NCBI RefSeq assembly: GCF_000272005.1
Contig: NZ_AKKU01000025.1
Location: forward strand, 67,493-91,492
DNA length: 24,000 nucleotides
Direction of reading: 5' to 3'
Source of the DNA: Alishewanella agri BL06
Lineage (GTDB): Bacteria > Pseudomonadota > Gammaproteobacteria > Enterobacterales > Alteromonadaceae
Of this stretch, positions 4,043-14,897 are shown in pieces (positions within the stretch are counted from its first letter, which is position 1; the number at the start of each line of letters is the position of its first letter). The notes under the pieces are model-generated. The model was not told where the DNA came from. It saw only the letters and a program-made list of their open reading frames with translations, and ran no database searches. The translations under genes were made by a program, and so were the position numbers.

Positions 4043-5737
4043 ATGAGCAAAACTATCGATATTTATCATCAGCAAGCTGAGCTTTTTGCCGCCCAGTATG
4101 ATGCGCTAAGTTTTGAACAGGTGCATCAGAGTTGGCAAACTTACTGGCCGAAAGAACAATTGGTGCTCGATATCGGTGCCGGCAGCGGCCGGGATGCATT
4201 CTGGCTGGCCGCGCAAGGCAATCAGGTTATCGCCGTCGAGCCTGCAGAGGATCTGCGCCGGCTGGGGCAGTTAAAAACCAGTGCCGCGCTGGCTCCCAAA
4301 GTGCAATGGCTCTCTGATAGCTTGCCGGAGCTGAAAGCGACCTATCAGCTTAATCTGCGTTTTAATACGATTTTGCTGAGCGCAGTCTGGATGCATATCA
4401 GTCCGTCAGAGCGGCAGCGCACCTTCCGAAAAATAGCCAACTTATTGGCCCCCGGCGGCCACTTTGTTCTCAGCTTGCGCTATGGCGACTTTAGCGATCA
4501 TCGGGTTGCCTATCCGGTTTCGGTAGATGAAATAAACGAGCTGGCCAGCAAATTGGGTTTAGTGCTTAAACATCTCTCCGCGCGAACTGCCGATGCTGGC
4601 GGTCGGGTTGATATTGCATGGCAGACGCTGGTACTGATGCTACCGGATGACGGTAGTGGCAGCCTGAGTAAAGTGCGGCATATCGTAGTTAACGACAACA
4701 AATCTTCGACTTACAAGCTGGCGCTATTACGTACCTTGGTGCGGATCGCCGAGGCGCATCCGGGCGCCGTTATTGATCGGCAAGATGGGCAGGTAGGCAT
4801 TGCACTGGGTTTAGTTGCCTTATATTGGATCCGCTTGTTTAAGCGTCTGGTCGATAGCGATATGCAACAGAACGCTGATCCGGCGAAAGGCTTAGGTTTC
4901 GTAAAGCCGGATGGCTGGGGCAAGCTTGCCAATCTCACTGCTGATGATTTCGCGATCGGTAACTTTTATACCGGTCAGGAAGCTCAGGCGTTGCAACAAC
5001 TGTTCGCGGATACGCTCAGCACCATAAAGGCGGGGCCTGTTACCTATATCTGGCAGGGCGAGAAGAGTAATCCGCTATTCCGGATGGAGCGCCACAAAGT
5101 AGCAAAACGCAGCCATATATTAATTGATCGCGATTTTCTGGCAAGTTTCGGTTGCTTTGTTTTAAGCGAGGATCTCTGGAATTGCTTCCGCCAGTACGGC
5201 TGCTGGATTGAGCCGTTACTGGTTCAGCAATGGATTGCCGAGATGCAAAAGTATCAACGTAATGCAGAACGGCAAATCTCTCTTGAAAGCTACCATAACC
5301 AGCTGCGCTGGCTGGATCAGCAGCATGATACCCGACTGGTGCGGCAGAAAGTTGCAGGACTGCGCAGCAGCGGAGCTCAGGTATGCAGTGTCTGGAGTGG
5401 GGCGCCACTCTACAGTTTTGATATTGACCACTGTGTACCCTTTAGCTATTGGCCAAACAATGAGCTATGGAATTTGCTGCCGGCCAGTCAGGCCGAAAAT
5501 CGCAAAAAGCGCGATCGGCTACCGAGCCAAAGCCGGATGCAGCATTGTGCCAATCATATTCAGGATTGGTGGCGTCAAGCCTGGCAAACCGACGCGGAAC
5601 AACAACGTTTTTTTATCGAGGCAGGGCTGTCACTGCCAAATATCAGCCCGGGTTGTCGGGATTTCGCCGAAGTGCTGCATGCGATGCAACTACAAATGGT
5701 CGGTATTAAACAACGGCTACAAGTCGCTGAATGGTAA
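4043..5737 (+). CDS. Fusion protein: N-terminal class I SAM-dependent methyltransferase, unassigned middle domain, C-terminal HNH (beta-beta-alpha-Me) nuclease motif
   Basis: 564-aa ORF. Methyltransferase motif I VLDIGAGSGRD, post-I VIAVEP, then ILLSAVWMHI and LLAPGGHFVLS (Methyltransf_11/25-like). HNH signature DIDHCVPFSYWPNNELWNLLPASQAENRKKRDRLP lies at about nt 5420-5525. I could not assign the middle ~250 aa, which includes KSSTYKLALLRTLVRIAE. There is no clear Shine-Dalgarno before ATG 4043. Confidence 0.8.
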   Translation: MSKTIDIYHQQAELFAAQYDALSFEQVHQSWQTYWPKEQLVLDIGAGSGRDAFWLAAQGNQVIAVEPAEDLRRLGQLKTSAALAPKVQWLSDSLPELKATYQLNLRFNTILLSAVWMHISPSERQRTFRKIANLLAPGGHFVLSLRYGDFSDHRVAYPVSVDEINELASKLGLVLKHLSARTADAGGRVDIAWQTLVLMLPDDGSGSLSKVRHIVVNDNKSSTYKLALLRTLVRIAEAHPGAVIDRQDGQVGIALGLVALYWIRLFKRLVDSDMQQNADPAKGLGFVKPDGWGKLANLTADDFAIGNFYTGQEAQALQQLFADTLSTIKAGPVTYIWQGEKSNPLFRMERHKVAKRSHILIDRDFLASFGCFVLSEDLWNCFRQYGCWIEPLLVQQWIAEMQKYQRNAERQISLESYHNQLRWLDQQHDTRLVRQKVAGLRSSGAQVCSVWSGAPLYSFDIDHCVPFSYWPNNELWNLLPASQAENRKKRDRLPSQSRMQHCANHIQDWWRQAWQTDAEQQRFFIEAGLSLPNISPGCRDFAEVLHAMQLQMVGIKQRLQVAEW

Positions 5738-5840
5738 GCCGCCATATCCTGATCTGGCACAAGCTTAGCGCGACAAAAATACTGGCACTGCCATAGCAGC
5801 AGGAGTAGATTAAGTTCGATATCGTTTTTGGTGAGTGTTT

Positions 5841-7430
5841 ATGACCGCATCCAAAGCAGCAACCGAAGCCCAGCCTGCCAGTACTTCGAAAACCACTACC
5901 CTAAGCCTGAAGCGGGTAGGTATTGATACCTACCGCGAAAACGTGGCCTATTTACACCGCGACTGTGCCATTTACCGCGCCGAGGGTTTTCAGGCGCTGG
6001 CGAAAATTGAGGTGCAGGCGCGCGGTAAGCGCATTTTAGCCAGCCTAAATGTGGTAGACGATGCCAGTATTGTCGGCTGTCAGCAGCTCGGCCTGTCGGA
6101 AGAGGCCTTTGTTAACCTTGGTGCGCTGGATGGTGAAGCCGTTACGGTATCACCGGCCGAGCCACCGCATTCTATTCCGGCGCTGCACCGTAAAATTGCC
6201 GGTGAGCGACTAAGCCGTGATGACTTTGCCAGCATAGTGCAGGATATTGCCGCCCACCGTTACTCGAAAATTGAACTTACTGCCTTTGTGGTGGCCTGTA
6301 ATCAGGGCGAGTTAGACCGCGAAGAGGTATTCTTTTTAAGCGATGCCATGAGTAAAGTGGGGCGCCGGCTCGATTGGCAGGAACACCCGGTAGTCGATAA
6401 ACACTGTATTGGCGGCATTCCGGGGAACCGTACCTCGATGCTGGTGGTGCCGATCGTGGCCGCGCATGGCATGCTATGCCCGAAAACCTCGTCGCGGGCC
6501 ATTACGTCGCCGGCCGGCACCGCTGATACCATGGAGCTGTTGGCGCGGGTGGAGCTGCCTTTTGACCAGCTGACCGACATTGTACACCGGCATCGCGGCT
6601 GTTTAGCCTGGGGGGGCAGCAGTGATTTATCCCCGGCGGATGATGTGTTAATTTCGGTTGAACGGCCATTGTCTATCGACTCGCCGGGGCAGATGGTGGC
6701 GTCGATTTTGTCGAAAAAAGTCGCTGCCGGCTCCAGCCATTTATTACTGGATATTCCGATTGGCCCTTCGGCCAAGGTGCGCAGCATGCCCGAGGCACAA
6801 AAGCTGCGCAAACTGTTTGAGTTTGTTGCCAAACGGATGGGGCTGGCGATCGAGGTGGTGATCACCGATGGCCGGCAGCCGATTGGCAATGGTATCGGCC
6901 CGGCGCTGGAAGCCCGCGACGTGATTAGGGTGCTTAAGAATCATCCGCTGGCGCCGAACGATTTACGGCAGAAGTCGCTGCGCTTAGCCGGCAGAATGCT
7001 GGAGTTTGACCCGGATGTGCGTGGCGGTGACGGTTTTGCTATCGCCCGCGATATTCTGGATTCCGGTCGGGCCTGGCAAAAAATGCAGGCCATTATGGCG
7101 GCGCAGGGTATGAAAGACTTTGACTCGGATAAGCCGCCGCTGTCGCCGTTAAGTTTTGATGTCGCCGCACCGCACAGCGGTACGGTAGTAGAAATAGATA
7201 ATGTGCAGCTGGCCCGCATCGCCCGCTCGGCCGGTGCGCCACGTGCCAAAGGCTCAGGGGTCGATTTGCTGGTAAAACTAGGTGAGCAGGTGGAACAGGG
7301 ACAAGCGCTATACCGGGTGTATGCGGCTTACCCCACCGAGTTAGCCTTTGCCCGCCAGGCTTGTCAGCGCAGCTTGGGTTACCGGATTGGTGCCCCTGAG
7401 TTGCTGCTGCCACTGCAGTTGGAGTATTAA
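5841..7430 (+). CDS. Thymidine phosphorylase family protein, type 2 subfamily (archaeal AMP-phosphorylase-like, with N-terminal extension)
   Basis: The ORF track starts at GTG 5835. ATG 5841 is preceded by GGTGAG at 5830-5835, so I prefer it. Diagnostic segments are [30 protein letters not shown] and [10 protein letters not shown]. About 530 aa versus ~440 aa for DeoA-type enzymes, with an extra ~90-aa N-terminal domain as in the type-2/AMP phosphorylase group. Confidence 0.85.
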
Positions 7431-7433
7431 AGT

Positions 7434-8327
7434 ATGTCGGTATTTGTATTATGCGCACCGGATGAGGTGCAGGCGGCGAACCGTTTAGCCGACGCCGCCG
7501 GTTTACCGTTAATCAGTTATCAGTTGCATCATTTTCCCGATGCCGAGTTAAAACTTACCCTGCCGTTTGCTGAAGCCGTACCCCGCGAGCTGGTGCTGTA
7601 CCGTAGCCTGGATAAGCCTAACGATAAACTGGTGGAGCTGCTGCTGATCGCCCGCCATGCCCGGTTACAGGGCGTGCAGAAAATCTGGCTGGTGGCACCT
7701 TATCTGGCTTATATGCGGCAGGATATTGCGTTTAATCCGGGTGAAATTGTCAGCCAAAAGATTATCGGCCAGTTTTTAGCCGAACTGTTTGATGGCGTTA
7801 TTACTGTCGATCCGCATCTGCACCGCATCAGCGAATTAAGCGAAGCCATTCCACAAGGTGCGGCGATAGCACTCAGTGGTGCCCCGCGTTTAGCCGAGCT
7901 GATTGCCAGCAAACATAGCCGGCCGCTGTTAATTGGCCCCGATGCCGAAGCCCTGCAATGGGTGGCACTGGCGGCTGAGCACATTCATTGTGATTATGCA
8001 GTTTGTAACAAGGTGCGGCATGGTGATAAGCAGGTTGATATTGCCTTACCCGATATCAGGGTGCAGGGCCGCAACGTGGTATTAATGGACGATGTCGCCA
8101 GCTCCGGTCGTACCTTGGCGGGCGCTTGTAGCAAGTTATTAGCTGCTGGTGCTGCCTCAGTCGATGTGGCCGTTACCCATGCGCTCTTTGCCGGCGATGC
8201 GCTGGAGGTGATTAAGGCCGCCGGCGTTGGCGAAGTCTGGAGTACCGATTGTATCGCCCATGCCAGCAATGCCATTAGTATGGCGCCGCTGCTGGCAGCG
8301 GCGTTAAAAACCTTAAAACCTCTTTGA
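7434..8327 (+). CDS. Ribose-phosphate pyrophosphokinase (PRPP synthetase) family protein / phosphoribosyltransferase-fold protein
   Basis: 297 aa. The start ATG lies 3 nt after the upstream TAA (7428-7430), suggesting translational coupling. Prs-like motifs: FPDAELKL (cf. F-x-DGE), APYLAYMRQD (cf. PY-x-x-YARQD), VDPHLH (cf. VDLH), and the PRPP-binding loop VVLMDDVASSGRT. Confidence 0.8.
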   Translation: MSVFVLCAPDEVQAANRLADAAGLPLISYQLHHFPDAELKLTLPFAEAVPRELVLYRSLDKPNDKLVELLLIARHARLQGVQKIWLVAPYLAYMRQDIAFNPGEIVSQKIIGQFLAELFDGVITVDPHLHRISELSEAIPQGAAIALSGAPRLAELIASKHSRPLLIGPDAEALQWVALAAEHIHCDYAVCNKVRHGDKQVDIALPDIRVQGRNVVLMDDVASSGRTLAGACSKLLAAGAASVDVAVTHALFAGDALEVIKAAGVGEVWSTDCIAHASNAISMAPLLAAALKTLKPL

Positions 8328-8380: not shown

Positions 8381-8794
8381 TTAGCGGTATGTAATGTCTT
8401 TATACATCGGCGCCAACAGTGCCAAAAGTTGATTTTGGGCACTAATACTGATGTTTTGTTGTTGCATCACATTAATCAAATTTTCAACCAGAGCATCGTA
8501 GTCAGCCAGCGTGATATTAAAACCAGTATGGCTCTGTTGCATAGTGCCGCCGGTGTACTGACAAGGCCCACCACTAATATTACACAGTTGTTCAGCAAGC
8601 AGGCGACGAAACCTGGCTATATCGGTATCAACAAAATGATGAACAATGCGCTGATCTTGTTCGATTGCGCGCAGTAAACCGTCAGTTATAGCGGCAATAC
8701 CTTGTTCACCCCCAAGTTGCTGATAAAGGCTGGGTTTTGTTGTATGGCTGCAAGCGCTCAACAGGATGATAAGAACTAAGCTGACGATACGCAT
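8381..8794 (-). CDS. Group 1 truncated haemoglobin (trHbN-like) with a lipoprotein signal peptide
   Basis: The ORF track starts at TTG 8800. ATG 8792-8794 gives MRIVSLVLIILLSAC with the lipobox LLSAC. Globin hallmarks are SLYQQLGGEQGI, HHFVDTD, GGPCQYTGGTMQQSH and FNIT. This ATG overlaps the upstream TAA by one base (TAATG on the minus strand). Confidence 0.8.
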   Translation of the reverse strand: MRIVSLVLIILLSACSHTTKPSLYQQLGGEQGIAAITDGLLRAIEQDQRIVHHFVDTDIARFRRLLAEQLCNISGGPCQYTGGTMQQSHTGFNITLADYDALVENLINVMQQQNISISAQNQLLALLAPMYKDITYR

Positions 8795-9627
8795 TACCAA
8801 GCCCCTTCCACTGATAAGTAATAGCCTTGTTGTTCGGCCAAACCGGCTATGCTACCAAGGTCAGCGTAGCCGGCAACAACAGATAGATGTTTATTGACAA
8901 ACCAAGCAATAAAGAGGTCGCGCCAATGTTGCTCGGTAGCAAAAGCTAACTGATCAGGTTTTTGTCTAAATTCAATGCCAACTGCCAAATTGTAATTAAG
9001 TAATACAGCAGCAGAACCTTCAAACATGAACTGATAATTATTGTCTTCGATGGTACCAAAGCCCAGCAGACCGGTTTGATTCGCTTTAGTCGCACGAATG
9101 GTGCCGTTTAAAAGTAAATTGCGGCCAGCCACCTGATTGAAGAAAACTTTGCTGGCTGACAAATAAATATCCAACCCACTGCTATCACGCGCTCCCACAG
9201 CTTGGGGTAGGGCAAAATCACGATGTTTTTTATACTGCAACCCCAGGCTAATCTGCGGTAATGCGGTATAAAGCAACTCACCCGCGATATGGTATTTAAT
9301 ACCGAGGATATCCTGACGCAATTCTCCACCAATACTGTCGAGCTTAAAAGTTTGCCGTGCAATCGAGAATTCCCATCTGTTATCGTAACTTGCACTGGCA
9401 CCAAAAACATTAAGTGTAAAGTCGTCGACTCCTACTTGGCTGGCGAAGGCAGTAGCCCCCCACTCTCCACTGCTGGCATAACTATTGATAACAGCCCAGG
9501 GTACGATACCGCCACCAGCACTGCCCTCGATACTGGAGGCACCGCCGGTAGCAATAATTTTACTACCCGCCACGCTATTGGTACTCAATACTAGCAAACA
9601 GGTAACCCAAAACAGTTTACTCGTCAT
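8794..9627 (-). CDS. DUF3034-family protein, predicted outer-membrane beta-barrel
   Basis: 277 aa. Signal peptide MTSKLFWVTCLLVLSTNSVAG/S. ATGGASSIEGSAGGGIVPWAVI and LGLQYKKHRDFALPQAVGARD match my recollection of DUF3034 (PF11231). It has alternating hydrophobic strands and a C-terminal aromatic residue (...VEGAW). AAGGA lies ~8 nt upstream of the ATG. Confidence 0.65.
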   Translation of the reverse strand: MTSKLFWVTCLLVLSTNSVAGSKIIATGGASSIEGSAGGGIVPWAVINSYASSGEWGATAFASQVGVDDFTLNVFGASASYDNRWEFSIARQTFKLDSIGGELRQDILGIKYHIAGELLYTALPQISLGLQYKKHRDFALPQAVGARDSSGLDIYLSASKVFFNQVAGRNLLLNGTIRATKANQTGLLGFGTIEDNNYQFMFEGSAAVLLNYNLAVGIEFRQKPDQLAFATEQHWRDLFIAWFVNKHLSVVAGYADLGSIAGLAEQQGYYLSVEGAW

Positions 9628-9654
9628 CTGTAGATCCTTTTGATGCTGTGCTAA

Positions 9655-10302
9655 CTAACTGCCAAATCCGCGCTTTGGCGGGCGCGGTTTTTCTTTGGCT
9701 GCAACGGCAAGTGTAAAAGAGAGCTCAGTCTTTAAAGGCGCTGAAACAACCTGCTCTGTCTGCTGCTCAAGTTGCCAGGGATGCCACAATTTAATCCGTA
9801 GTGTCTCTTGTGGTACCTCCGGAAAATATACTTTGCCGTTTTCGTCGGTAACTAAAAGCAGAGGACTCTCACCGACATAGATATAGGCCAGCATATAGTC
9901 ATGAATGTTGCAGCCCAGCACCACTATTCCTGGCTCATCAAACAAGACCGGCTCCTCTGGCTTACCCGTATATAGCTCAATTTCAAAGGTTTTCGCGCTG
10001 GAGAATGAGTAGACGTGGTGTCGTGTTTTATCCCGGTTAGGAAAGTCGATTAGTGAGCCTTTCGGCGTTGCGGTAACAAAGGGAACAAAGGTAAGTTGTT
10101 CCTGAGCAACGTGCTGAATGCCGGAGTTAACGATTGCTGCTGTTGGGCTGATAATTTCAACAACGGCATCTGCAAGTGGGCGGTTTCCCTGATCATAAAT
10201 TTGTATGCTAAGACTTTGACTGTGTGCCTTGGGAGTGGTGACACATTGCATGACCAAGATGAAAACCAGCCAACAAATTCGGGTACACATAGTCAAACTC
10301 AT
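9655..10302 (-). CDS. Secreted cupredoxin-domain protein with an amicyanin-like type-1 copper ligand set (family often annotated 'methylamine utilization protein')
   Basis: 215 aa with an N-terminal signal sequence (alternative start ATG 10290). DFPNRDKTRHHVYSF parallels the amicyanin N-x-D...H-x-V-x-F segment. GCNIHDYM has the C-x2-H-x2-M spacing of amicyanin CTPHPFM. The core is flanked by short beta-rich N- and C-terminal extensions. Confidence 0.65.
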   Translation of the reverse strand: MSLTMCTRICWLVFILVMQCVTTPKAHSQSLSIQIYDQGNRPLADAVVEIISPTAAIVNSGIQHVAQEQLTFVPFVTATPKGSLIDFPNRDKTRHHVYSFSSAKTFEIELYTGKPEEPVLFDEPGIVVLGCNIHDYMLAYIYVGESPLLLVTDENGKVYFPEVPQETLRIKLWHPWQLEQQTEQVVSAPLKTELSFTLAVAAKEKPRPPKRGFGS

Positions 10303-12804: not shown

Positions 12805-13299
12805 GTGCTGGATAAAATATTAGAACAAAATAGACAACAGCTTGATGTTATCGATGCTATTTTGCGTCAGGTTAGTGCTGCCGATTATCAAAAAGTTCTG
12901 GCGCTACCTGGAGAGCCAAGTGTTGGCAAGCACGTACGGCATGTGTTGGGACATTATCAACAGCTGCAACAAGGGCTACAAACCGGGATGCTGGATTATC
13001 GCCAGCGTGAACGGCAACAGCTGATTGAAACAAACCCACTCGCCGCTTTAGGGTTGTTACAACAACAACTTGACTGGCTAGCAACATTAGCAGGCTGTGA
13101 AGCAATACCAATATTTCATTACCAGTGTGCTGAGGGAAAAGGTCATAGCTGTTTGCTACGGGAGCTGGATTTTGTTGCCAGCCATACTGTACATCATCTG
13201 GCAATATTACAGATTGTGCTATTGCAACTCGGCTACCAGCTGCCTGCCGAGGCAGGGGTGCATAGTTCAACCCTGGAGTATCGGCGATGTGCACCTTAA
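12805..13299 (+). CDS. DinB-superfamily (DinB_2-like) metal-dependent protein
   Basis: The track ORF starts at TTG 12730. I prefer GTG 12805 because AGAGGAA (12791-12797) lies 7 nt upstream and the preceding residues look non-coding. His-rich four-helix pattern: GKHVRHVLGHY ... SHTVHHLAILQ. The 3' end overlaps the next ATG by 13 nt. Confidence 0.6.
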   Translation: MLDKILEQNRQQLDVIDAILRQVSAADYQKVLALPGEPSVGKHVRHVLGHYQQLQQGLQTGMLDYRQRERQQLIETNPLAALGLLQQQLDWLATLAGCEAIPIFHYQCAEGKGHSCLLRELDFVASHTVHHLAILQIVLLQLGYQLPAEAGVHSSTLEYRRCAP

Positions 13300-14897
13300 G
13301 CTGGCAATACCGGGAAGACGGTTTACATTTGCTGTTTAATCGTGACGAGCAAATACAGCGTCCGGCGGCCCTGTTACCAGAGCGCTATCAGGAAAACGGT
13401 GTCACAGCATTAATGCCGCTTGATCCTGTGGCCGGTGGCAGTTGGCTGGCAGTTAATGAACTCGGACAAGTTTGGTGTCTGTTAAATGACTATACCAAAG
13501 GAAGTCGAGTGGCTACAGCAGGTTTATCCAGTAGGGGCATGTTGATTAAAGCACTGGCGCATATGTCAGCACGTCAGCAGCAAGATACCCTGCTACAGGT
13601 GGATAAACTGCAAGCCTATGCCCCCTTTAAACTGGTGTTATTTCAACAGCTGCAAGAGCCGATCGTCTGGCATTGGAATGGCCGTAGTCTAACGCAGCAT
13701 CTGGCAGTCCGCTCGCCCATCTCGAGCTCTAGCAAATTACCTGGGGTGATCCCAGCGTTACGGCGTTGGTACTGGCGGGCTAAGGTGAAAGACATAACCA
13801 GAGCTGCCGAGCTGCTGACTTTGCAGCGCAGTAGCAAACCAGTTAATGCTTTTTGTGGTTTGGCGATGCAGCGCAGCACCAGCCAGACCGTCAGTACCTG
13901 CTATCTGCACTGTGATGCCAACGGTGTCAATTTCCGTTATTGGCATGGACATCCCAATACTCAACAGGTGCAACCAGACACCAGCTTGCTGCTGACTTGG
14001 ACGACTGCTCTGCATTTGCAGCACAGTGGTTACCAGCCAATTGATTTACCGCAACTCGTTAAAAGCGCGGTGCCAGCTTTTGCGGCACGTCTTCGTCCCT
14101 GGCAGTGGTATGGATTACAGCATTGCCTTGCGCAGCGACAACTTAACCAGGCTTTACAGCAATTAAGTGCACAACCCGACCAACGATTCTGTGACAGCGC
14201 ACTGCAGTATTTGCGGGTGGAGCCGCAGTTAGTGGCTTGTCGCTGGCCCAGTGCAGAAAGCCGGCCGGTATTTGTCGCCAACCATCCGACCGGTGGTTTA
14301 GACGGGCTAATGCTGATCGCCTTACTGCAAAAACGTTATCCGAATTTACAGGTGGTGGCAAACGACTTGCTGCAAGCGATAGTGCCATTACAAGCTAATA
14401 TTTTGCCGGTGTCGGTATTTGGCAAGCCTGCCGCCGCTGTACCACAGCTGACAGCCGCTTTTGCTTCTGGTCAGCCGTTACTGATTTTTCCTGCCGGGCG
14501 CACAGCCCGGTTTAATGCGCAGCATCAGCTTGATGATGGGGTCTGGGCTAAACTGGCGATTACGCTATGCCGACGGGAGCAACGTAGTCTGACGTTAATC
14601 CATATCGATAGCCGCAATTCCCGGCTGTTTTATGCACTGGCGGCGCTCCGCCTGTGGTTTGGCATTAAGACAAATTTGGAGATGCTACTGCTAAGCCGGG
14701 AGATGTTAAAGCCGGCCGTGAAGCACCCCAAGATCTTTGTTGATGTGCCGATGCATCCGGTCGAACTTGATGCGCTGGCCGATACCGACCGGCAGCGGGC
14801 ACAGCGGCTAAAGCGCCGCGGTATGCAATTACCGATCTTATACAAGGAGCAACAGGATGCAGCAGGCTATACCTCTTGCGGCCGCAGTCGCGGCTGA
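13287..14897 (+). CDS. Fusion protein: N-terminal NRDE/TANGO2-family domain plus C-terminal PlsC-like lyso-lipid O-acyltransferase domain
   Basis: 536 aa. The N-terminus MCTLSW...LLFNRDEQIQRP...GGSWLAVNELGQVWCLLN...SSRGMLI is the NRDE (PF05742) pattern, including Cys2. The C-terminal half has VFVANHPTGGLDGLMLIALL (nt ~14278-14306), LLIFPAGRTAR and IDSRNSRLFY. These are typical of the acyltransferases encoded next to OlsB-like GNAT N-acyltransferases. Confidence 0.75.
   Translation: MCTLSWQYREDGLHLLFNRDEQIQRPAALLPERYQENGVTALMPLDPVAGGSWLAVNELGQVWCLLNDYTKGSRVATAGLSSRGMLIKALAHMSARQQQDTLLQVDKLQAYAPFKLVLFQQLQEPIVWHWNGRSLTQHLAVRSPISSSSKLPGVIPALRRWYWRAKVKDITRAAELLTLQRSSKPVNAFCGLAMQRSTSQTVSTCYLHCDANGVNFRYWHGHPNTQQVQPDTSLLLTWTTALHLQHSGYQPIDLPQLVKSAVPAFAARLRPWQWYGLQHCLAQRQLNQALQQLSAQPDQRFCDSALQYLRVEPQLVACRWPSAESRPVFVANHPTGGLDGLMLIALLQKRYPNLQVVANDLLQAIVPLQANILPVSVFGKPAAAVPQLTAAFASGQPLLIFPAGRTARFNAQHQLDDGVWAKLAITLCRREQRSLTLIHIDSRNSRLFYALAALRLWFGIKTNLEMLLLSREMLKPAVKHPKIFVDVPMHPVELDALADTDRQRAQRLKRRGMQLPILYKEQQDAAGYTSCGRSRG

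Follow-up and report, generated by a model that had tools for sequence, protein, structure and literature searches.

What is the role of a bacterial polypeptide that carries a methyltransferase-like domain at one end and an HNH nuclease at the other? The question is raised by a gene in a 24,000-nucleotide stretch of the Alishewanella agri BL06 genome (contig NZ_AKKU01000025.1; the whole stretch is hereafter called the window, and positions are counted from its first letter). The gene, at 4043..5737 on the + strand, is an ATG-start open reading frame (ORF) encoding 564 aa, followed by a stop codon. An earlier note, made from the letters of the window, had described it as a fusion of a class I S-adenosylmethionine (SAM) methyltransferase of non-DNA type to an HNH nuclease through an unassigned middle domain, and this three-part architecture was borne out: the ORF and all of the quoted motifs are present, and Pfam recognised both Methyltransf_25 and HNH_4. 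The middle domain and the HNH nuclease were shown to form the core functional unit of the family, because the pair also occurs alone in other phyla. With a rough probability of 0.5, we propose that the protein is a stand-alone, single-chain, metal-dependent DNA endonuclease that would act in genome conflict, in a restriction-like or an abortive anti-phage or anti-plasmid manner.

Three domains in a single chain

Judged by its homologues, the ORF is a genuine gene and no chance reading frame, because full-length homologues with 50–98% identity occur in hundreds of genomes; in the species-genome collection, proteins of Alishewanella aestuarii B11 and Alishewanella jeotgali showed 98% identity. 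The motifs quoted earlier map to each of the three parts, with VLDIGAGSGRD (aa 41–51), VIAVEP (aa 62–67), and LLAPGGHFVLS (aa 134–144) in the N-terminal domain, KSSTYKLALLRTLVRIAE (aa 220–237) and GLVALYWIRLFKRL (aa 256–269) in the middle domain, and DIDHCVPFSYWPNNELWNLLPASQAENRKKRDRLP (aa 460–494) in the HNH region. When the whole protein was searched against Pfam, methyltransferase families and HNH_4 were matched, with no match between them. The GC content near the gene was unremarkable, and a scan for promoters and terminators around it was uninformative, the counts being no better than those obtained with shuffled sequence.

At the C-terminal end, HNH_4 (PF13395) matched aa 459–494 (E=3.8e-7; 30.4 bits against a cut-off of 22). 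Among 56 sequences with identities down to 25%, D462, H463, N477, P480, and a W were invariant and N486 and K489 nearly so, and the strict D-H...N...N..K pattern was matched by 171 of 196 full-length relatives; the DxDH/N/N residues singled out in the earlier note are thus conserved across the family. The structural model contains the expected beta-beta-alpha fold (strands 460–463 and 478–481, then a helix), and Foldseek aligned it to isolated Cas9 HNH domains (6o56 and 8f43) with probabilities of 0.99–1.0, in line with the earlier description of this nuclease as Cas9/McrA-style. Behind the core, the model places helices at 496–513, 517–530, and 541–562, and the conserved residues of this extension are W510, F523-F524, E526-A527, S530-L531-P532, and W564. 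Because the catalytic set is intact, invariant, and laid out as in the Cas9 HNH, the domain is predicted to be a catalytically competent nuclease that cuts DNA.

The best profile and fold match of the protein, Cas9 HNH/HNH_4, shares with it the beta-beta-alpha-metal core and the layout D-x-D-H ... N ... N-x-x-K-x-D-x-x-P, whereas only ~70–100 residues of the window protein match Cas9, and it has no RuvC domain, recognition (REC) lobe, domain interacting with a protospacer-adjacent motif, guide RNA, or CRISPR array. A relationship to Cas9 as such was rejected, as TIGR01865 scored 15.9 bits against a cut-off of 100 through the HNH segment only, and no cas genes were present in the window.

For the N-terminal domain, the Methyltransf_25 match covered aa 41–139 (E=1.6e-11; 45.2 bits against a cut-off of 27), and the matches to Methyltransf_25, 23, 12, and 11 together spanned aa 37–146. 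The features of class I SAM methyltransferases were all found, namely the profile match, D43-x-G45-x-G47-x-G49, the acidic E66 after beta-2, and the UbiG/TehB fold. Foldseek placed the domain next to UbiG, RPA2492, and TehB (E ~1e-7) and returned only methyltransferases for the full-length model, and the profile matches in the PDB were exclusively small-molecule methyltransferases; by PDB profiles and Foldseek together, the relatives comprise UbiG, TehB, RPA2492, and phosphoethanolamine, glycine N-, and thiol methyltransferases. With TehB/UbiG/CpaM-like enzymes, the domain shares its fold, motif I (xLDxGxGxGRD/N), and an acidic residue where beta-2 ends. Unlike these, it is joined to a nuclease module via a conserved LPDDGSG linker, in which L200, P201, D202, D203, and G204 were invariant and G206 nearly so among 18 close relatives. 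It also differs from the TehB family in that all NCBIfam scores fell far below the cut-offs (e.g., 29.7 bits against 303 for TehB), the sub-threshold matches falling on various small-molecule methyltransferases and on the HNH portion of Cas9; the TehB and TPMT scores were likewise below the Pfam cut-offs. Down to ~27% identity, motif I (xLDxGAGSGRDA) is retained along with the acidic residue that follows beta-2, and [DE]xGxGxG was kept in 183 of 196 full-length relatives. From the intact motifs I and II, the domain is predicted to bind SAM.

Seven of ~52 aligned N-terminal domains were degenerate at the SAM motif (P0121, P0125, P0139, P0165, P0181, P0267, and P0276). These proteins still keep the middle domain and HNH, together with H28, W31, W35-P36, W89, D92, and the R-x-x-F-R-K helix of the N-terminal domain. 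A metagenomic clade (P0121–P0129; 532–555 aa, with 60–62% identity in the middle domain and HNH) was observed to have lost the glycine-rich SAM loop, FIGSRRSRE or IGIDANSE standing in place of DIGAGSGRD, while its other invariant residues are kept. The retained residues suggest that the domain may also have a role independent of SAM.

The earlier note had called the methyltransferase non-DNA in type, and our results agree: its sequence and fold relatives are small-molecule enzymes, no [DNS]PP[YFWH], PCQ, ENV, or FxGxG motif occurs anywhere in the window protein, none of the 196 full-length relatives carries the DNA-methyltransferase motif IV or C5 motifs within the N-terminal 210 residues, and no DNA methyltransferase family appeared among the Pfam, NCBIfam, PDB, or Foldseek matches. 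A DNA methyltransferase of a restriction-modification system (N6-adenine, N4-cytosine, or C5-cytosine) was accordingly rejected as a candidate, given that motif IV, PCQ plus ENV, and family similarity are all lacking. This bears on the possibility of a type IIG/IIL-like restriction-modification enzyme, in which the middle domain would recognise a site, the N-terminal domain would methylate it in host DNA, and DNA left unmethylated would be cut by the HNH. Like the enzymes of the MmeI and BpuSI class, the window protein combines a methyltransferase fold and a nuclease in one polypeptide and likely binds SAM, motif I is conserved in most members, and one copy of the gene ends a type I restriction-modification operon (Rheinheimera fenheensis, see below). 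However, the methyltransferase lacks motif IV and groups with TehB/UbiG-type enzymes, all of its sequence and fold neighbours being small-molecule or protein methyltransferases; the nuclease is a C-terminal HNH rather than an N-terminal PD-(D/E)XK; and no target-recognition domain is recognisable, the middle domain being unassigned. Moreover, the nuclease stays intact in several lineages that no longer bind SAM or lack the whole domain, which would be lethal for a true restriction-modification enzyme unless the nuclease were otherwise restrained. We therefore regard a type IIG/IIL-like enzyme as quite improbable, and the self/non-self logic that the earlier note had seen in the fusion, i.e., self-methylation of DNA as in classical restriction-modification, is not supported by these comparisons. 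The RNA-directed methylation or cleavage enzyme that the earlier note had offered as an alternative is likewise unsupported, as none of the results had a bearing on it.

The reverse reading, in which the protein is mainly a small-molecule or protein methyltransferase and the C-terminal HNH an inactive structural or DNA-binding remnant, would agree with the annotation of relatives in NCBI and other sources, which is only 'class I SAM-dependent methyltransferase' or similar, and with the methyltransferase domain being the best-scoring part in Pfam. It is nevertheless extremely improbable, since the module of middle domain and HNH, including the HNH catalytic residues, is better conserved than the methyltransferase domain, and it is the latter that decays or is lost.

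In PADLOC, the best match of the window protein was Mad2 of the MADS system (PDLC04134; E=2.8e-14), and the other match was the HNH part of Cas9. Mad2 was rejected as an assignment, as the match involves the methyltransferase domain only (aa 37–179 against profile positions 291–424 of 492), and no other mad genes are present in the window.

The middle domain (aa 207–455) was modelled together with the HNH by AlphaFold (AF2) from the 56-sequence alignment, with a mean predicted local distance difference test score (pLDDT) of 93.8 and a predicted template modelling score (pTM) of 0.90. Foldseek searches with this model returned Cas9 HNH domains only from the PDB (best E=2e-3, none at ≤1e-3) and phage HNH proteins only from BFVD (E≥0.06). 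The structural route suggested earlier for this region thus yielded no assignment in either collection, and the guess of a winged helix found no backing. A profile of 40 trimmed middle domains matched nothing among PDB sequences better than E=0.49; in Pfam searches with the middle domains of 40 family members, no family matched more than one member; and Pfam searches with stand-alone relatives, NCBIfam, and PDB profiles from three alignments gave HNH or chance-level matches only for this domain. The domain contains the conserved motifs ND-K-STYKLALLR, GLV-LYW-R-FK, QQ, KGLGF, WIEP--V-QW, DT--VR, and (S/C)VW(S/T)G. Invariant basic and aromatic residues are abundant (K220, Y224-K225, R230, W262, W388, W397, and others), a richness that would fit nucleic-acid binding.

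A further possibility is that the protein is a modification-dependent (type IV) enzyme, whose middle domain would read a modified base or a modified backbone, e.g., phosphorothioate, with the TehB/TPMT-like domain as an accessory. The standard type IV layout is an HNH nuclease preceded by a reader domain at the N-terminus (PMC6765204, PMC11037411). The gene also adjoins other type IV enzymes, and it shows weak similarity to TehB and TPMT, which methylate S, Se, or Te nucleophiles. On the other side, those similarities remain below the Pfam cut-offs, and the known type IV readers (SRA, PUA/EVE/YTH, DUF3427, SBD, and winged helix) were all rejected for the middle domain, which matched none of them by Pfam, PDB profile, or Foldseek. 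As we also know of no type IV enzyme that needs a SAM domain, we consider this explanation improbable.

Distribution of the family

A search with the full-length protein returned 2897 proteins at E≤1e-3, and relatives were present in 472 genomes of a one-genome-per-species collection. When residues 200–564 were used as a query against 1.8 billion 50%-identity representatives, 1071 clusters were obtained at E≤1e-3, most of which are 555–595 aa long with the module starting near residue 200; the homologues that the earlier note had proposed to collect therefore mostly show the same architecture. Members from Alishewanella, Rheinheimera, and Arsukibacterium showed 67–79% identity, and those from Vibrio, Photobacterium, and Enterovibrio showed ~54% identity across 100% of the length, with a single V. 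parahaemolyticus 90% cluster holding 1197 member sequences. More distant members were found in alpha- and betaproteobacteria, the latter including one from Sutterella. The combination of a small-molecule-type methyltransferase and an HNH nuclease in one chain is an unusual one, carried by a widespread and intact gene.

Using tblastn, copies were located on 22 plasmids or chromids. The full architecture occurs on those of Pseudoalteromonas, Azospirillum, Roseomonas, Sphingobium, and Sinorhizobium, and stand-alone proteins consisting of the middle domain and HNH (about 370–390 aa; 22–27% identity) occur on plasmids of Nostoc, Leptolyngbya, Tolypothrix, Deinococcus, and Hymenobacter. Among the relatives, no other N-terminal domain was found in place of the methyltransferase, the shorter ones being either truncated methyltransferases or proteins without a Pfam match. 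Two distant members (P0259 and P0271; 773–779 aa) carry an extra C-terminal Peptidase_S24 domain (LexA/UmuD-like, self-cleaving) after the HNH. These variants hint at control by RecA or DNA damage, as would fit a nuclease controlled by a signal of damage or infection.

Genomic neighbourhoods and inheritance

In other genomes, the gene lies beside defence genes of many kinds. A PLD-ResIII-DUF3427 type IV enzyme (PADLOC mREase_IV, E=4e-213) adjoins it in Rheinheimera texasensis, a gammaproteobacterial metagenome-assembled genome (MAG), Enterovibrio, and Grimontia, with WYL regulators and a NERD protein close to these loci. An island of integrase, resolvase, and reverse transcriptase plus ATPase genes abuts it in V. 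parahaemolyticus (PADLOC retron ATPase-Toprim I-B); in E. norvegicus, insertion sequence elements, a broken PLD-ResIII gene, Fic, and HipAB come after it; and on a 40-kb Roseomonas plasmid, McrBC and VapBC adjoin it. In Rheinheimera fenheensis FR7-31 (L090 2956–11695), hsdM-hsdS-hsdR are followed, after a gap of 2 bp, by the gene on the same strand, a position like that of a fourth gene of the type I operon that recalls PrrC-type add-ons.

Among 138 singleton neighbours, strong PADLOC matches (E 0 to 1e-78) were obtained for type I REase, PtuA, PDC-M01A/B, DrmA/B, NERD+UvrD, ZorE, NsnB/C, MzaE, and PsyrT, and a weaker one for GajB (1.2e-41). Further matches lay at least five genes away (GajA, Drt2, MzaC, HsdS, and a type II methyltransferase), and whole islands are therefore involved. 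The systems represented near the gene comprise type I and type IV restriction, retron, Septu, DISARM, Gabija, Zorya, McrBC, and toxin-antitoxin. One source gives ~1.5% as the predicted share of defence genes among bacterial genes (PMC13434031); at this rate ~2 defence genes would be expected among the 138 neighbours, so that the excess looks large, albeit without a matched genomic control.

The stand-alone genes on cyanobacterial plasmids adjoin DUF262, other HNH, and GIY-YIG nucleases and a DUF3696 OLD-like ATPase, and others of them adjoin type III-B CRISPR, WYL, and NucS genes. In Nostoc N6, it is the DUF3696 OLD-like ATPase gene that follows the stand-alone gene. A small ORF of 79–94 aa was observed 17–70 bp upstream of the stand-alone gene in Nostoc, Leptolyngbya, Deinococcus, and Hymenobacter (L087 6741–9333, L088 6726–8140, and plasmids L093–L095); these ORFs showed no homology across genera.

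Several observations weigh against a defence role. The far-flank genes, which were meant as a control, proved defence-rich themselves and gave no clean background. In the Harveyi clade, folD and the gene are separated by an inserted defence island, so that the gene may there only flank an integration hotspot. Many loci, including the window, lack defence genes, and no defence, mobile-element, specificity-subunit, or second methyltransferase gene was found within the 24 kb of the window. PADLOC has no model for the family, and no phage-borne copies were found in 50,697 phage records. The architecture and family are undescribed in the full-text literature searched, though that is no proof of absence, and the architecture is not mentioned in the work on His-Me finger classification, DefensePredictor, or BREX diversity. 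Ordinary chromosomal genes surround the gene in the window and in other Alishewanella, and the loci of distant relatives lie among metabolic genes. A neighbour-joining tree of 74 full-length proteins largely tracked taxonomy, with few exceptions (Vibrionaceae, Alishewanella/Rheinheimera). Finally, the gene appears to be near-universal in V. parahaemolyticus, and such persistence is unusual for defence genes. The earlier proposal of a single-gene defence enzyme thus stands in part: relatives repeatedly abut known defence systems elsewhere, and the window contains none. Overall, the neighbourhoods give suggestive, though uncontrolled, evidence of a role in defence.

To search for partners, ORFs were called in ~80 loci and clustered, and the gene orders were compared. 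The three genes on each side belonged to 296 different families, and no neighbour family was common beyond close relatives. This extends the statement of the earlier note that no specificity or partner gene is adjacent: the protein acts alone, with no conserved partner. Synteny was stable within some clades, with an M14 peptidase and UPF0114 upstream in Alishewanella, and an acyltransferase and an unknown gene upstream and DUF429, M15 peptidase, and Zn protease genes downstream in the Vibrio Splendidus clade. In 14 Vibrio loci (L030, L040, and L053–L069; Splendidus clade and V. fortis), a DUF429 gene follows on the same strand after 10–59 bp, and one was also noted ~6 kb from the homologue on the Roseomonas plasmid (L089 9971–10516). 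DUF429 may be a clade-specific operon partner.

The Alishewanella gene is monocistronic and a long-standing resident that has been passed on vertically. Vertical inheritance likewise prevails in Alishewanella/Rheinheimera and Vibrionaceae as groups, though the chromosomal address of the gene shifts often. Two loci (L024 and L025, from Rheinheimera sp. W122 and a gammaproteobacterial MAG) represent a divergent second lineage of the gene, with 57% identity to the window protein; its branching outside the main Alishewanella/Rheinheimera clade indicates occasional horizontal transfer or an old paralogue.

Such inheritance raises the alternative of a lineage-specific housekeeping or genome-maintenance nuclease, e.g., one that takes part in the repair or recombination of DNA or in RNA processing, includes a modification step dependent on SAM, and is passed on vertically while defence islands land beside it. 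The congruence of the tree with taxonomy, the stable synteny in Alishewanella and Splendidus-clade Vibrio, the apparent near-universality in V. parahaemolyticus, and the ordinary context of the window and metabolic context of distant loci would all follow from it, and the LexA-like S24 fusions could mean a link to SOS or repair. It accounts poorly, however, for a position that varies between most species even within a genus, for the many unrelated defence systems that adjoin the gene in independent lineages and on plasmids, and for the stand-alone genes in plasmid defence clusters of other phyla; in addition, no known repair or RNA-processing family was matched in Pfam, NCBIfam, or PDB profiles. 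Fixed housekeeping synteny, which the earlier note had named as an outcome speaking against its proposal, was found by half, in the stable non-defence surroundings in Alishewanella and a tree that largely follows taxonomy. A housekeeping nuclease is possible, although we hold it to be unlikely.

The coordinates of the features of the gene are summarized in Table 1.

Table 1. Features of the gene, with positions in the window and the evidence for each
Feature	Position (nt)	Strand	Basis
Complete ORF: methyltransferase-like domain, middle domain, and predicted HNH nuclease	4043..5737	+	ORF list; full-length homologues, 98% to Alishewanella aestuarii/jeotgali
Class I SAM methyltransferase-like domain, Rossmann-type, TehB/UbiG-like, aa 1–199	4043..4639	+	Pfam, Foldseek, PDB profiles
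Predicted SAM-binding motif I, VLDIGAGSGRD, aa 41–51	4163..4195	+	Motif position; kept in most relatives down to ~27% identity
Linker LPDDGSG, aa 200–206, at the methyltransferase/middle-domain junction	4640..4660	+	Conservation among 18 close relatives
Middle domain, alpha/beta, aa 207–455	4661..5407	+	AF2 model; no Pfam, PDB-profile, or Foldseek match
HNH (beta-beta-alpha-metal) core, aa 456–500	5408..5542	+	Pfam HNH_4; Cas9 HNH match by profile and fold
Predicted catalytic D462-H463	5426–5431	+	Conservation; N477 and N486 also conserved
C-terminal helical extension of the HNH, aa 501–564	5543..5734	+	Model helices and conservation up to the final E-W

Within the window, the M14 gene, which encodes a carboxypeptidase on the - strand, and the UPF0114 gene, which encodes a membrane protein, lie upstream. 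Downstream lie thymidine-phosphorylase-family and phosphoribosyl pyrophosphate (PRPP)-synthetase-like genes, then globin, DUF3034, DsbD-like, thioredoxin, and AraC genes, and farther on acyltransferase, TonB receptor, PepSY, and catalase-peroxidase genes. The first two of these (5835–8327, +) encode proteins of 531 aa, with ~100 extra N-terminal residues, and 297 aa, respectively, and are separated by 4 bp; the pair is also present in A. aestuarii and A. jeotgali and is absent at this place in other Alishewanella (OsmC and MipA in A. longhuensis). The globin gene, which is of a bacterial-like type, and DUF3034 lie at 8381–10302 (-) together with a gene for a 215-aa protein that has an N-terminal hydrophobic segment and no Pfam match. 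An unusual fusion of a TANGO2 domain (aa 1–133) to an acyltransferase domain (aa 272–500) is encoded by a 536-aa ORF at 13287–14897 (+), which is followed and overlapped by a GNAT-like gene.

Proposed function and implications

By analogy, the protein resembles single-chain defence nucleases that pair a nuclease with a variable sensor region. As in Shedu and the type IV enzymes McrA/ScoMcrA and VcaM4I, a single chain bears the nuclease at its C-terminal end and an accessory or sensor region at its N-terminal end; the family likewise occurs in defence islands, has no obligatory partner, and has a variable, dispensable N-terminal domain. It differs in that the Shedu nuclease is a PD-(D/E)XK enzyme rather than an HNH, and in that its own sensor region matches no known reader. 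To our knowledge, no defence nuclease with a small-molecule-type SAM methyltransferase domain is known.

Under the proposed role as a stand-alone DNA endonuclease in genome conflict, the middle domain would recognise a nucleic-acid target or trigger and the HNH would cut DNA, while the TehB/UbiG-like domain would bind SAM through its intact motifs I and II and serve either to regulate in a SAM-dependent way or to modify a non-canonical substrate. It would not mark self DNA as a base methyltransferase, given the missing motif IV and the lineages in which SAM binding or the entire domain is gone. We consider the protein a credible but unproven new defence nuclease.

A more specific and rather speculative form of this proposal is that of a single-protein immune nuclease in which the middle domain, with its unseen fold, recognises the target or trigger and a co-opted methyltransferase either acts as a SAM sensor and switch or methylates a non-base nucleophile on invader DNA. 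In the sensor version, the SAM-bound domain would hold the HNH inactive, and depletion of SAM by a phage SAM lyase or hydrolase would release it; the LexA-like S24 variants would then be the same nuclease wired to a RecA or DNA-damage signal. We regard this specific form as unlikely.

The middle domain, being confidently modelled and without a match in solved or viral predicted structures, is a good target for structure determination, and it could be a new nucleic-acid or ligand-recognition module joined to a compact Cas9-type HNH. If the gene is defensive, it would represent a widespread one-gene system missed by current defence finders: hundreds of species of Vibrionaceae and Alteromonadales-like bacteria carry it, alpha- and betaproteobacteria harbour relatives, and further relatives occur on plasmids of cyanobacteria and Deinococcus. 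In that case, it would also tie SAM, a cofactor targeted by phages in order to evade restriction and BREX, directly to the control of a nuclease. If the gene is instead a housekeeping gene, it would point to a conserved but so far unrecognised nucleic-acid transaction in marine gammaproteobacteria, among them the pathogen V. parahaemolyticus.

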